The notes beneath the pieces were generated by a model. That model was not told the DNA's origin, did no database searches, and was given only the letters and a program-made list of their open reading frames with translations. A program made the translations under genes and the position numbers. A stretch of DNA of 64,000 nucleotides from an uncultured Bacilli bacterium. GTDB lineage: Bacteria; Bacillota_I; Bacilli_A; RF39; UBA660. Shown piece by piece: positions 11,753-20,792 of this stretch. The first letter of the stretch is position 1, and every line of letters begins with the position of its first letter. The DNA is taken from the NCBI GenBank assembly GCA_934120715.1, contig CAKOUW010000004.1, positions 26,781 to 90,780 on the forward strand, read 5' to 3'.

Positions 11753-11774
11753 ACGCAAATGATTGCGTTTTTTT
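11753..11774 (+). terminator. orphan plus-strand terminator-like hairpin
   Basis: ACGCAA-atga-TTGCGT followed by TTTTTTT. No plus-strand gene precedes it. Its T-run is the first 7 nt of direct repeat copy A. Confidence 0.35.
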
Positions 11775-11813
11775 AGATCCATCTTGGAATAAAATCTGTC
11801 AGTTCTTCTAAAA
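11768..11813. repeat. direct repeat copy A (29 nt perfect, 46 nt at 41/46)
   Basis: TTTTTTTAGATCCATCTTGGAATAAAATC is identical to 20747-20775. Similarity continues with 5 mismatches to 11813/20792. Confidence 0.9.
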
Positions 11814-11820
11814 TTATGTA
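11773..11820 (-). pseudogene. 3' remnant of a paralogue of the 97-aa gene at 20752-21045
   Basis: Minus-strand translation YIILEELTDFIPRWI-stop versus KYVVEDPTDFIPRWI-stop of the intact gene. An in-frame TAA lies immediately upstream at 11821-11823. Confidence 0.7.
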
Positions 11821-11859
11821 TTAGTTAAATATTTTATTATCTAACTAGGTATATTTTAA

Positions 11860-12552
11860 TTAAATAGAAATCATTTTGTTTTCATCTGATACTTTTGATA
11901 AGCCAATAACAAAATCAGAAACATGTAATCCAGTTCCAATTACTATTCCTACTGGAACGAAAAATAACATTATAGTCAATATATATGTTAATATCTTTGT
12001 ATTAGAAAATAAAGGTATTAAAATTACAATTAATAATGGTGAAAATAAATAATATATTAGAATAGAAAGTCTTAATGCGCCACCCTTTTTATCTCCTATT
12101 ACAAATCTATGTATTCCTAAAGTGCCAAAAAACAAAGCCAATAAAACATATTCAACCTTATATATCTTTTTATATTTTCCAATATAGTATTTCCCCTTAT
12201 TTCTTTTATACATTGTTAATCCAACAATTATATTAAAAACTATAGAAATAATTAGCACAATTATTATTATTATAACAGATTGTTTAACCCCACTAAACAT
12301 ATCCTTCATTTCTGCGGAATAGTCTTTGCTTGCACTCGCTGCACCTATTGCTACTATACCTACTATTACAGCATAGGCAGAGTAAGTAAAAATAAGAAGA
12401 AAATCAATTGCAGCCAAAACAACATTTACAATTTTTAAAATTATTTCAAGAGTTTTGTTTGGATTAATCGTATTTTTTAAAAGTTGTATTCCACATCCCG
12501 TACAAAATTTGTTATTCATATCATTTTCTTTTCCACAAACCTGACATTTCAT
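11860..12552 (-). CDS. zinc-ribbon / TM2-domain polytopic membrane protein
   Basis: N-terminus MKCQVCG...FCTGCG. TM2-domain motif GTLGIHRFVIGDKKGG. Several hydrophobic helices. Confidence 0.6.
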   Translation of the reverse strand: MKCQVCGKENDMNNKFCTGCGIQLLKNTINPNKTLEIILKIVNVVLAAIDFLLIFTYSAYAVIVGIVAIGAASASKDYSAEMKDMFSGVKQSVIIIIIVLIISIVFNIIVGLTMYKRNKGKYYIGKYKKIYKVEYVLLALFFGTLGIHRFVIGDKKGGALRLSILIYYLFSPLLIVILIPLFSNTKILTYILTIMLFFVPVGIVIGTGLHVSDFVIGLSKVSDENKMISI

Positions 12553-12556
12553 AAAA

Positions 12557-13372
12557 TCACCTCTTTATTTTTGGACTTCTTCTGTTGCTTCTATAACAAT
12601 AATACATATTATAGGTATTAACATTTATAATTACTGCTTCATCAGTATTTTTTGAAATACCCATTTCATATTTGGATTTATAAACCTCACTTTGACGTTT
12701 ACCATTATTAACAAATTCTTCACCATTTAAAGTAATTTGATAGTAATTAGTATTGTTAGCATAATCGATTTTATGCAAATCTTCAAATTCATAAGTTCCT
12801 ATAACATGATTATTCTCAGCATCATTATATTTATTCCATATAAATTCATTATCATTATTTAGTTGCATTGTTACTATATAATCATCACCTAGTCCAAGCC
12901 CACTAAATCCTTTACAATCCCATGTACCAATAACTGGATTGCTAGGACTCAATTTATATATATATAAAAAGAATATGAATATTGGAATTGCTAAAACTAG
13001 GCTGATTGTATTTAATATTAGACCAATTTTATATTTTTTATTTTCTCTTAGGGCCGATATGCCAATTATAAGTCCGGCTGTTGATAATGGCATGGTAAAT
13101 ATTTGAAAAATAAACACTAATACTAAACTTATAATACCAATAATGAGTGAAATAGTGTTTTTTAAATTATTGTCATTTTTATTAAAGTTTTGGTTATTAT
13201 TAAATCCTTGCTGAGGGCAATTATAATTTTGCTGATTTGTGTTTTGCAAGCCTATATTTAAGTTGCTACTTTGTAAAGTATTGGAGGTATTATCAACAAT
13301 GACTCTATTACCACATATACCACAAAAGACTTCATTTTCTTTTAACTCATTACCACAGTTTTTACAATACAT
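12557..13372 (-). CDS. zinc-ribbon, Q/N-rich linker, TM segments and ectodomain protein
   Basis: N-terminus MYCKNCG...FCGICG, then an N/Q-rich stretch, hydrophobic segments and a C-terminal soluble domain of about 130 aa. Confidence 0.55.
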   Translation of the reverse strand: MYCKNCGNELKENEVFCGICGNRVIVDNTSNTLQSSNLNIGLQNTNQQNYNCPQQGFNNNQNFNKNDNNLKNTISLIIGIISLVLVFIFQIFTMPLSTAGLIIGISALRENKKYKIGLILNTISLVLAIPIFIFFLYIYKLSPSNPVIGTWDCKGFSGLGLGDDYIVTMQLNNDNEFIWNKYNDAENNHVIGTYEFEDLHKIDYANNTNYYQITLNGEEFVNNGKRQSEVYKSKYEMGISKNTDEAVIINVNTYNMYYCYRSNRRSPKIKR

Positions 13373-13442
13373 ACTTATTTAACCCCTTTATTTATATAAT
13401 TATGCTTATCAATATAATAGCTATTAAATTATTCTTCATAAT

Positions 13443-13874
13443 TTAATTTGCAATCGTTTTGATGAACAGTAATATAAACATTACTACTGCAAGACCAACT
13501 AGTATTCCACTAACAACTTTACCGATTGTTGCTAATTTTTTATCTGCCATTTCTCCTTTTTGGGCAAATCTAAAACCAACTGCTGCAATTAAAATTGCCA
13601 AATAAAATGATAATCCAATAAATATATACCAAATTATTGCTACAGTGGGTACAATAATTGACAGAATTGCCCACTTTTTCATGTTTGGATTAACGGCTTG
13701 ATTTACATAATTAGGATCTAATCCTCCATTCATATTTGAATATTGTTGATTCTGATTATTTATGTTGTTTGTTTGCTGTTGAGACTGGGATTGAGTATTT
13801 TCTAATATAACTCCACAGTTTTTGCAAAATCTTTCACCATTATTATTTTGCGTTCCACACTTTGTACAAAACAT
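13443..13874 (-). CDS. zinc-ribbon, Q/N-rich linker, 3-TM protein
   Basis: N-terminus MFCTKCG...FCKNCG, then QSQSQQQTNNINNQNQQ, then three hydrophobic helices and no ectodomain. Confidence 0.55.
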   Translation of the reverse strand: MFCTKCGTQNNNGERFCKNCGVILENTQSQSQQQTNNINNQNQQYSNMNGGLDPNYVNQAVNPNMKKWAILSIIVPTVAIIWYIFIGLSFYLAILIAAVGFRFAQKGEMADKKLATIGKVVSGILVGLAVVMFILLFIKTIAN

Positions 13875-20154: not shown

Positions 20155-20184
20155 ATCAATACTCACTCCTCTCTACTATAAATC

Positions 20185-20193
20185 ATTATATCA
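20185..20193 (-). promoter_or_regulatory. extended -10 promoter element (TGATATAAT) for the zinc-ribbon operon
   Basis: Minus strand TGATATAAT lies about 30 nt upstream of the ATG at 20154. The -35 region is weak (TTGGGG). Confidence 0.45.
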
Positions 20194-20201
20194 TATTTTT
20201 T

Positions 20202-20255
20202 GTACATTTCCCCAACTTTTTCTATATTTCTCCAAAAATTGTATATTTTCCCATA
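20202..20255. promoter_or_regulatory. three phased direct repeats (candidate operator) in the divergent intergenic region
   Basis: gTAcATTTCcCCAAc (20202), cTAtATTTCtCCAAa (20222), gTAtATTTtCCCAta (20241). Spacing is 20 and 19 nt. Confidence 0.5.
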
Positions 20256-20287
20256 TTTTTGAAAGAATAATACCTAGGTGAATGTAA

Positions 20288-20722
20288 ATGATTGTAAAAA
20301 ATTTTAGATATTCGAGAGAATCACTCGATTTAAAGCAGCGAGAGCTTACTAGCCTTTTCAATGTCACTTCATCTACTATTTCAGGATGGGAAATTGGAAA
20401 AGATACAATTCCATTAAAGCACTTAATTAAATATGCAAATGAATATGGTTTTAGTTTGGATTATCTTTTCGGATTGAAAAATAAAAATGAGGTTTATAAA
20501 CCTTTAGAAGTTGATTTAGAATTGATTGGAAAAAATCTTAGAATTATTAGGAAAACAAATAAGCTAACTCAAGAAGAAGTGGCTAAGATCTTAAATACTG
20601 GAGCTTCAGGTTATGCGCATTATGAAAATGCCAGGAATTTGATACCTACTACTTTTTTATTTGCCCTTTCAAAGATATATAAAGATTTTTCGATTGATGA
20701 GATATTAGGAAGAAAAAAATAA
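20288..20722 (+). CDS. XRE-family regulator with two tandem HTH domains
   Basis: Two HTH_3-like units (LKQRELTSLFNVTSSTISGWEIGK and LTQEEVAKILNTGASGYAHYENAR). Divergent from the zinc-ribbon operon. Confidence 0.8.
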   Translation: MIVKNFRYSRESLDLKQRELTSLFNVTSSTISGWEIGKDTIPLKHLIKYANEYGFSLDYLFGLKNKNEVYKPLEVDLELIGKNLRIIRKTNKLTQEEVAKILNTGASGYAHYENARNLIPTTFLFALSKIYKDFSIDEILGRKK

Positions 20723-20753
20723 AAGTGTTCAAAATGATCACTTTTATTTTTTT
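20721..20753. terminator. bidirectional hairpin terminator between the XRE gene and the 97-aa gene
   Basis: AAAAGTG / CACTTTT stem, 11-nt loop, T-runs on both strands. Its T-run forms the start of direct repeat copy B. Confidence 0.5.
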
Positions 20754-20792
20754 AGATCCATCTTGGAATAAAATCGGTCGGATCCTCTACAA
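20747..20792. repeat. direct repeat copy B
   Basis: See copy A. Covers the stop codon and last 13 codons of the 97-aa gene. Confidence 0.9.

Follow-up and report, generated by a model that had tools for sequence, protein, structure and literature searches.

The window examined here is a stretch of 64,000 nucleotides from an uncultured Bacilli bacterium (GTDB lineage Bacteria; Bacillota_I; Bacilli_A; RF39; UBA660), corresponding to positions 26,781 to 90,780 of contig CAKOUW010000004.1 in assembly GCA_934120715.1. Within it, an operon of eight genes, here called the zinc-ribbon operon, and the divergent gene of an XRE-type regulator are bracketed by two perfect copies of a sequence of 29 nucleotides (nt), referred to as the 29-mer or the core. 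One of these (copy B) ends an intact gene for a protein of 97 amino acids (aa), which follows a module encoding LemA, a DUF2207 protein and a radical S-adenosylmethionine (SAM) enzyme with a SPASM domain, and the other (copy A) lies between the last operon gene and essC. The origin of this repeat, and what it means for the genes that surround it, is the subject of the present analysis.

The two copies of the 29-mer

The 29-mer (TTTTTTTAGATCCATCTTGGAATAAAATC) is present in exactly two copies in the window, both in plus-strand orientation and with a spacing of 8979 bp (Table 1), and no third match was detected there at ≤3 mismatches, nor was any match obtained in 100 shuffles. In a repeat search, the similarity of the pair reaches over 46 nt with 89% identity (11768-11813 versus 20747-20792), over which the copies agree at 29/29 positions of the core and 12/17 positions of the arm; taken together, the adjoining arm and hairpin agree at ~21/33. 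The core itself is non-palindromic, and a dispersed repeat of the kind of repetitive extragenic palindromes or miniature inverted-repeat transposable elements, or an integron attC site, was rejected on the grounds of this property, of the two copies in 64 kilobases (kb) and of the lack of an IntI-like gene.

Read on the minus strand, copy B forms the end of the intact 97-aa open reading frame (ORF; ...EKLNEPLPIENIEIKYVVEDPTDFIPRWI-stop / ...IKYVVEDPTDFIPRWI-stop), while copy A translates as stop-YIILEELTDFIPRWI-stop, with no start codon and with stops upstream. The stretch that contains copy A is referred to as the relic. Each of the six arm codons of the relic upstream of the core is one base off copy B, three of these differences falling at third positions, and homology to copy B is lost farther upstream. 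Such a pattern is more in keeping with two working genes drifting apart than with random decay, and the relic looks like the end of a second gene that diverged while it was functional and was then truncated, rather than like a decayed twin of copy B.

The geometry had been described in an original prediction made from the window alone, and its descriptive part was borne out throughout: the coordinates, the shared orientation, the spacing and the extent of the 46-nt similarity were reproduced, translation agreed that copy B comprises the stop and last codons of an intact 97-aa gene and that copy A is a dead, start-less remnant of such a 3' end, folding recovered a hairpin abutting each copy, and the block between the copies indeed consists of the eight-gene operon and the XRE regulator, among whose nine ORFs a Pfam scan found no integrase or recombinase domain. 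The search for further copies that had been proposed alongside yielded only the two within the 64-kb window.

The hairpin next to the relic (hpA) is placed relative to it as the hairpin between the intact gene and the XRE gene (hpB) is to the intact gene. hpA was flagged as terminator-like on the plus strand and folds with -5.7 (+) and -7.1 (-) kcal/mol; hpB folds with -11.6 (+) and -11.4 (-) kcal/mol (z about -5) and was missed by a simple terminator scan, probably because of an internal stem mismatch. Both have the loop motif ATCATTT in common, and their stems differ but are still complementary. The A/T-tract of the core serves as the tail of the hairpin terminator at either copy. An RNA element at the repeats was considered and dropped, as the sole RNA family match was that of a microRNA model on the hairpin (E 0.57), attributable to chance.

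A look-up with the window's own 97-aa and 230-aa proteins brought up 12 contigs from this species, among the assemblies of ENA and the run assemblies of Logan. Their identity to the window is 99.1-100%, the gene order does not differ, and one, ERZ28615073 scaffold_256, matches it fully. Every such contig that spans both positions carries both copies of the 29-mer, and none of the strain contigs has more than two. A misassembly is ruled out by the same order at this identity in 12 contigs from different samples and assemblers. Copy A is not invariant within the species: a G>T change at 11783 is found in two independent contigs (L020/L025 and L023), and of the 8 polymorphic sites in the 361 nt of the spacer between the 230-aa gene and essC, one falls within the 29 nt of copy A (8 strain contigs, numbers too small for a test). 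The substitution density of copy A is about that of the surrounding spacer, and nothing indicates present constraint on it. In one contig (L023) there is a change in the A-tract of copy B, which is not mirrored in copy A.

Table 1. Features in and around the block bracketed by the 29-mer (window coordinates).
Feature	Position	Strand	Description
essC	7004-11578	-	FtsK/SpoIIIE ATPase with FHA domain, 1524 aa; flanks the relic downstream
Strong bidirectional intrinsic terminator	11706-11743		15-bp stem; separates the relic from the essC promoter region
hpA	11753-11768		ACGCAA-ATGA-TTGCGT, then T-run; directly downstream of the relic in gene direction
Copy A of the 29-nt core	11768-11796	-	Exact match; non-coding; in the operon 3' untranslated region
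Relic of a 97-aa-type gene	11773-11820	-	15 intact codons and TAA (YIILEELTDFIPRWI-stop); in-frame stop immediately upstream; no start
Eight-gene operon	11860-20166	-	425, 575, 560, 286, 224, 143, 271 and 230 aa; co-directional
XRE regulator	20288-20722	+	Divergent; two HTH_3 domains; beside the operon in L029, L031 and L038
hpB	~20716-20750		Bidirectional terminator common to the 97-aa gene and XRE
Copy B of the 29-nt core	20747-20775	-	Last 7 codons (DFIPRWI), TAA stop and A-tract of the intact 97-aa gene
Intact 97-aa gene	20752-21045	-	Function unknown
LemA-DUF2207-radical SAM/SPASM module with leader	21054-25106	-	LemA 24217-24768; DUF2207 22040-24217; radical SAM/SPASM 21054-~22046
CwlD-like Amidase_3 gene	25122-25808	-	Flanks the LemA module upstream, in this species only

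Gene order in relatives and the position of the junctions

Related loci are known as fragments only, with flanks of ≤10 kb. In L001, the operon (421-575-561-288-224-141-184 aa) is followed by LemA, DUF2207, the radical SAM gene, the 97-aa gene and an amidase/LysM gene; its 97-aa protein is 94% identical to that of the window and its DNA ~87-92% identical. The overlapping part of L029 is 98% identical to L001 and adds a divergent XRE gene upstream of the operon. The same order is found in L010, in L027, though this is a distant relative (p224 63% identical), and in L031, a metagenome-assembled genome from NCBI, where an IS3 element takes the place of the 97-aa gene. In L002-L005, a 94-aa homologue lies immediately after the operon, and L002 corresponds to L001 minus exactly LemA-DUF2207-radical SAM, with an orthologous amidase/LysM gene downstream. 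A further group (L006-L009 and L033) has the LemA unit and a frameshifted 97-aa gene with a gene for a large serine recombinase, and no operon, upstream. As these loci still contain the final ~95 nt of the 184-aa tail gene of the operon and share 97-98% identity with L001, they derive from the L001 form. The recombinase, at 3403-5526 of L006 and also present in L007, is a protein of 707 aa with the domains Resolvase, Recombinase, Zn_ribbon_recom and DUF4368.

From these comparisons, the ancestral array consisted of the XRE gene on the opposite strand, the operon, variable tail genes, LemA-DUF2207-radical SAM, the 97-aa gene and a terminator, in this order. Among the arrangements seen, that of the window alone places the LemA unit and the 97-aa gene ahead of XRE, on its upstream side. 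Copy A, at the distal end of the operon, occupies the position at which the 97-aa homologue sits in L001, L010, L027 and L002, and hence both marks of a truncated gene copy, namely partial homology to an intact gene without a start codon and a place corresponding to that of the intact gene in relatives, are found in it. A third copy or relic was sought upstream of LemA within the window and, in the relatives, where the operon meets LemA, and none was detected (≤4 mismatches; short-word BLAST). Beyond the modules themselves, no synteny of the flanks was found between the window and the relatives.

The junctions can be placed closely. The window is collinear with L001, L006 and L014 through the end of the 97-aa gene, copy B and hpB, up to position 20721, and collinearity with L029 begins at the XRE stop codon, at 20722, which forms the edge of the operon module. 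Since collinearity runs through copy B and hpB, the rearrangement junction lies after hpB and not in the 29-mer. On its left side, the LemA module has its border at 25106, within the 3' half of a hairpin of which L001 has the complete form; the window, L001/L006/L029 and L010 all share this border, with different upstream neighbours in each. All identifiable junctions are at terminator hairpins, and none is in the 29-mer. By comparison with the relatives, copy B and both its flanks represent the native, uninterrupted configuration, not a hybrid attL/attR site. hpB has its homologue in the hairpin that follows the 97-aa gene in L001, L006 and L014; relative to all three, its loop is inverted (window 20728-20740 versus 10307-10319 in L001; GATCATTTTGAAC versus GATCAAAATGATC), a small palindrome-mediated inversion.

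The placement of these junctions bears on the interpretation that had been put forward first, according to which the operon arrived by site-specific integration as a cassette between the LemA/DUF2207/radical SAM unit and essC. The 29-mer would then be the core of the left and right attachment sites (attL/attR), XRE and the operon the cassette that targeted the 3' end of the 97-aa gene, and the element either immobilised or served by a recombinase encoded elsewhere. The likeness to islands and prophages in the 3' ends of genes, be they for transfer RNA, transfer-messenger RNA or proteins, is considerable: a block of several genes lies between direct repeats that cover the 3' end of a gene, an intact gene is completed by one of these copies while the other is a dead fragment, and a perfect core is accompanied by diverging arms. 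Moreover, rearrangements cluster at the 97-aa gene (the recombinase beside the LemA unit in L006, a fusion in L014, the IS3 element in L031 and a pseudogene in L013), and in L002 a repeated terminator hairpin lies at module borders. Unlike in such islands, however, no integrase lies in or beside the block, as the Pfam scan detected no integrase, resolvase or transposase domain in the nine block ORFs or in both flanks, and synteny is unbroken at the core, copy B and its flanks being collinear with three loci that have no XRE gene or operon there, and thus not a hybrid junction. The arms are homologous but diverged, rather than unrelated, copy A is polymorphic within the species, and the operon is not foreign DNA but an ancestral neighbour of the supposed target gene, to which it is linked in five other lineages. 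Within the reach of the data, the block is present in relatives with no second copy of the 29-mer, an outcome that had been named beforehand as speaking against integration. Large serine recombinases are not known to leave 29-bp direct repeats, which likewise counts against it.

The hairpin in L002 (AAAACATATATTAKCAAAATATATGTTTTT) occurs three times in direct orientation (2538-2568, 10292-10322 and 11282-11312). Its copies of 31-40 nt lie after rdgB, after the 94-aa gene and before the amidase/LysM gene, and the first and third have the final 12 nt of rdgB in common as well (40 nt at 95%). That they limit a parallel cassette with duplicated 3' ends was rejected, as the operon, the tail gene, the 97-aa homologue and the amidase/LysM gene are syntenic between L001 and L002; because their flanks are syntenic in this way, these repeats are not simple cassette limits and were not counted in favour of integration.

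The remaining checks gave no sign of a mobile origin. An empty site, with the 97-aa gene followed directly by the terminator and essC, had been suggested as an arrangement to look for, its absence being named as a further outcome against integration; none was found among the contigs listed for the exact 97-aa and 230-aa proteins (16 and 14 read, respectively) or among the relatives' loci, the sampling being limited to the collections. The composition of the block, also proposed for comparison, is not anomalous, with a GC content of 0.27 against ~0.29 for the window and a tetranucleotide distance of 0.16 within the window's range of 0.09-0.225. The region at 33000-47000, which has the highest GC content (0.33) and the largest tetranucleotide distance from the mean of the window (up to 0.225), is more deviant than the block. 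A phage or defence island was rejected, as PADLOC matched only the helix-turn-helix (HTH) of XRE, PHROGs gave only HTH matches and weak matches of unknown function with no phage module, and the 22-nt coding part of the core had no match in the viral contigs of IMG/VR. Between the window and L001, the operon is 87.5% and the LemA unit 91.8% identical, and between L001 and L010 the same offset is seen (92.2% and 95.5%, respectively); this equal relative divergence fits a common vertical descent of both modules better than the import of one. With three of the four defining features that were tested failing, site-specific integration is the least supported reading, and we regard it as very improbable.

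Origin of the repeat

The explanation that we favour, and consider on balance probable, is that the two copies of the 29-mer are the 3' ends of members of one gene family, copy A being what is left of a truncated second 97-aa gene in a permuted ancestral array, that is, a scar without a function of its own. It builds on a relic with a clean reading frame, the ancestral linkage and order of the modules, breaks at terminator hairpins and a block that contains no recombinase. In the course of events that we envisage, the LemA-DUF2207-radical SAM-97-aa module, at the end of the array in the ancestral order, would have come to lie upstream of XRE in this species, so that copy B belongs to the moved module, and the old distal copy of the 97-aa gene would have been deleted down to 46 nt and its hairpin, leaving copy A. 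Because the two 3' ends are diverged, two diverged 97-aa copies presumably coexisted, either through recombination with a diverged relative or from an old duplication, and the truncation of the second would have been fairly recent. The duplication junction that the original prediction had offered as its alternative comes close to this, in that copy A is the 3' remnant of a 97-aa-type gene.

The perfect identity of the core may be accounted for by the protein that it encodes. Within the 97-aa family, conservation is highest in the C-terminal motif [DN]P.[DN]F..[KR]W[IL], which the majority of the distant members display, and in L001, L006, L010 and L002 the core shows 0-2 synonymous changes. 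Since a conserved motif is encoded and only 0-2 synonymous differences occur in the clade, 29 perfect nucleotides need not imply a dedicated site; the strong codon bias of an AT-rich genome would contribute, and a short patch of gene conversion possibly helped.

It is also conceivable that the core is kept identical for a function in cis, be it as part of the two terminators or as a binding site, at the 3' ends of both transcripts, for the XRE protein or for an RNA-binding factor, or through repeated short-patch gene conversion from copy B. The unevenness of the identity, which is complete in the core and much lower in the arm and hairpin, and the use of the A/T-tract as terminator tail at both copies would agree with this. 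On the other hand, copy A has itself undergone a substitution within the species, at the density of the spacer, and the A-tract change of copy B in L023 is not mirrored, no RNA family matches, nothing similar is present in the XRE-operon promoter region or elsewhere in the window, and the constraint on the family motif at the protein level already explains most of the identity. A cis function is hence judged improbable.

Known gene-fragment scars, which result from segmental duplication followed by deletion, resemble copy A in several respects: a start-less, in-frame 3' fragment with its own terminator lies at the border of a rearrangement, is fixed in the species and, on the few polymorphic sites seen, gives no sign of constraint. 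Unlike in these, the arm and hairpin here are ~35% diverged next to a perfect core, which calls for a second, diverged source or for conversion. This difference is the first of several points that weigh against the explanation as a scar. A simple copy-then-delete scheme predicts 3' ends that are identical to begin with, whereas the arm (12/17-18) and the hairpin stems are diverged and the 29 nt are perfect, and on account of this divergence a diverged second copy or gene conversion must be assumed, neither of which is seen directly. Two intact 97-aa genes were found together in no genome. The flanks, cwlD and essC, differ from those of every relative, so that the number and order of events are not reconstructable, and the relatives are at hand only in the short fragments described above. 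Finally, at a nearly invariant Pro of the family the relic carries Leu, and hence the relic may, in its present form, never have been part of a working gene.

The main rival to the scar explanation accounts for the divergence in a different way. In a Campbell-type insertion, an operon-less resident resembling L006 (LemA unit, 97-aa gene, hpA, terminator and essC) would have taken up, from a diverged relative, a circularised fragment resembling the form in L002 (XRE, operon, tail genes, 97-aa gene and hpB), and a single RecA-dependent crossover inside the 97-aa gene would have generated two hybrid copies, the distal one of which was later truncated. The operon would thereby have arrived between the LemA unit and essC, in line with the original prediction, and the 29-mer would be no dedicated site but only the best-conserved part of the homology used. 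Both parental forms are represented among the relatives, as the LemA unit with the 97-aa gene and no operon (L006-L009 and L033) and as the operon followed by the 97-aa homologue (L002), the diverged 3' ends, including arm and hairpin, are directly explained as those of two lineages, and the relic has a clean reading frame. As in the insertion-duplications of naturally transformable Firmicutes, a homology segment becomes a direct repeat on both sides and no dedicated recombinase is needed; unlike in those, the homology still visible covers no more than 46 nt, the scheme requires a later truncation of the distal copy, and neither a circular donor nor an empty recipient was observed. Furthermore, the operon and the LemA unit are equally diverged from L001 and neither looks foreign, the ~95 nt of tail gene kept by L006 point to descent from an operon-bearing form rather than to a naive recipient, it has to be supposed in addition that the circle closed precisely at hpB and the stop codon of XRE, and no empty site with essC was found. 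Taken together, we consider a single crossover of this type rather unlikely, even if it is the rival that comes closest.

There is, lastly, a slim chance, slimmer than that given to any reading above, that the 29-mer, alone or as core plus hairpin, is a working recombination site at which a recombinase encoded elsewhere shuffles the modules of the array. If true, this would explain why the 3' end of the 97-aa gene is a hotspot across species, as seen in the permuted order here and in L006, L014, L031 and L002, and a shuffling site that is recombinase-less or acted upon in trans would be of more interest than a scar.

The 97-aa family and the surrounding array

The 97-aa family is tiny, with 13 clusters at 90% identity in a collection of 5.8 billion proteins and 17 clusters at 50% identity among 1.84 billion representatives. 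The protein has no Pfam family above threshold, and its AlphaFold2 model (pLDDT 81), which consists mainly of beta strands and two short helices, had no match in the PDB (best E 0.16). A relationship to DUF3592, suspected from motifs, found no support (hhalign probability 5%). Among the GTDB species representatives, a single one has a member of the family, and it is labelled 'uncultured Bacilli bacterium' (L013; CAKOWI010000002.1). It has a solitary 97-aa pseudogene with two in-frame stops (10001-10294), located between membrane-protein genes and hrcA-grpE-dnaK, with no operon or LemA unit within 10 kb and with a hairpin (AGCAATC...GATTGCT) that resembles hpA. In L014, an ORF of 62 aa (1190-1378), directly upstream of the amidase/LysM gene, consists of an unrelated N-terminal part fused to the C-terminal 32 residues of the 97-aa protein, and this fusion is another rearrangement, with its breakpoint inside the 97-aa gene.

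Of the eight operon products of the window, five combine an N-terminal zinc ribbon with membrane segments, another contains a trypsin-like protease domain, and the remaining two show no known domain. Conservation among the relatives covers the first six genes, and the last two (271 and 230 aa; 11860-13372) form a variable tail, the 230-aa protein combining a zinc ribbon with a TM2 domain. An unrelated gene (184 and 190 aa, respectively) takes the place of these tail genes in L001 and L002. Homologues of the 230-aa protein are very rare, with 7 clusters and a sole long context, L030, where homologues of the 271-aa and 230-aa proteins (50% and 42% identical) are encoded in an otherwise unrelated zinc-ribbon operon (148-3379) with one gene between them. 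An intact distal 97-aa copy beside the last operon gene, sought by way of the 230-aa homologues, was not found.

On the other side of the relic, the zinc-ribbon operon lies directly upstream of essC, a neighbourhood seen in none of the relatives fetched. Downstream of essC (region 6321-11578) there are only an 85-aa gene with no Pfam match and two genes (67 and 69 aa) for which no Pfam family reached significance, and no other secretion-related domain was detected in the flanking genes scanned. Within the LemA module, the C-terminus of the DUF2207 protein contains three 21-nt repeats (22040-22120) that encode a Gly/Cys/Ser-rich tail (...GCSSCGGGCSSCGGGCSSCGGGGSW); these are also present in L001 (8929-9001) and L027 (8927-8991) and overlap the start region of the radical SAM/SPASM gene. 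Because the tail and the LemA-DUF2207-radical SAM order are kept in distant relatives, the tail may be a substrate of the radical SAM enzyme; the literature searched contained no papers that mention LemA, DUF2207 and radical SAM together. Between the conserved leader of the LemA module and the ribosome-binding site of LemA, ~200 nt of the window (24815-25013) are absent from L001, L006, L010 and L029.

The geometry of the repeat mimics that of attL/attR sites, but the tests place it, most likely, with gene-fragment scars at the borders of rearrangements instead. The consequence is mainly one for annotation, in that the repeat should not be annotated as att sites, nor the zinc-ribbon operon as an island. 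Of more interest than the repeat is a by-product of its analysis, namely a conserved, uncharacterised array in uncultured, low-GC gut Bacilli, which is made up of XRE, six conserved membrane, zinc-ribbon and protease genes, a variable tail, LemA-DUF2207-radical SAM/SPASM and a family of ~95-aa proteins, and the modules of which are reordered, lost or replaced between closely related species.

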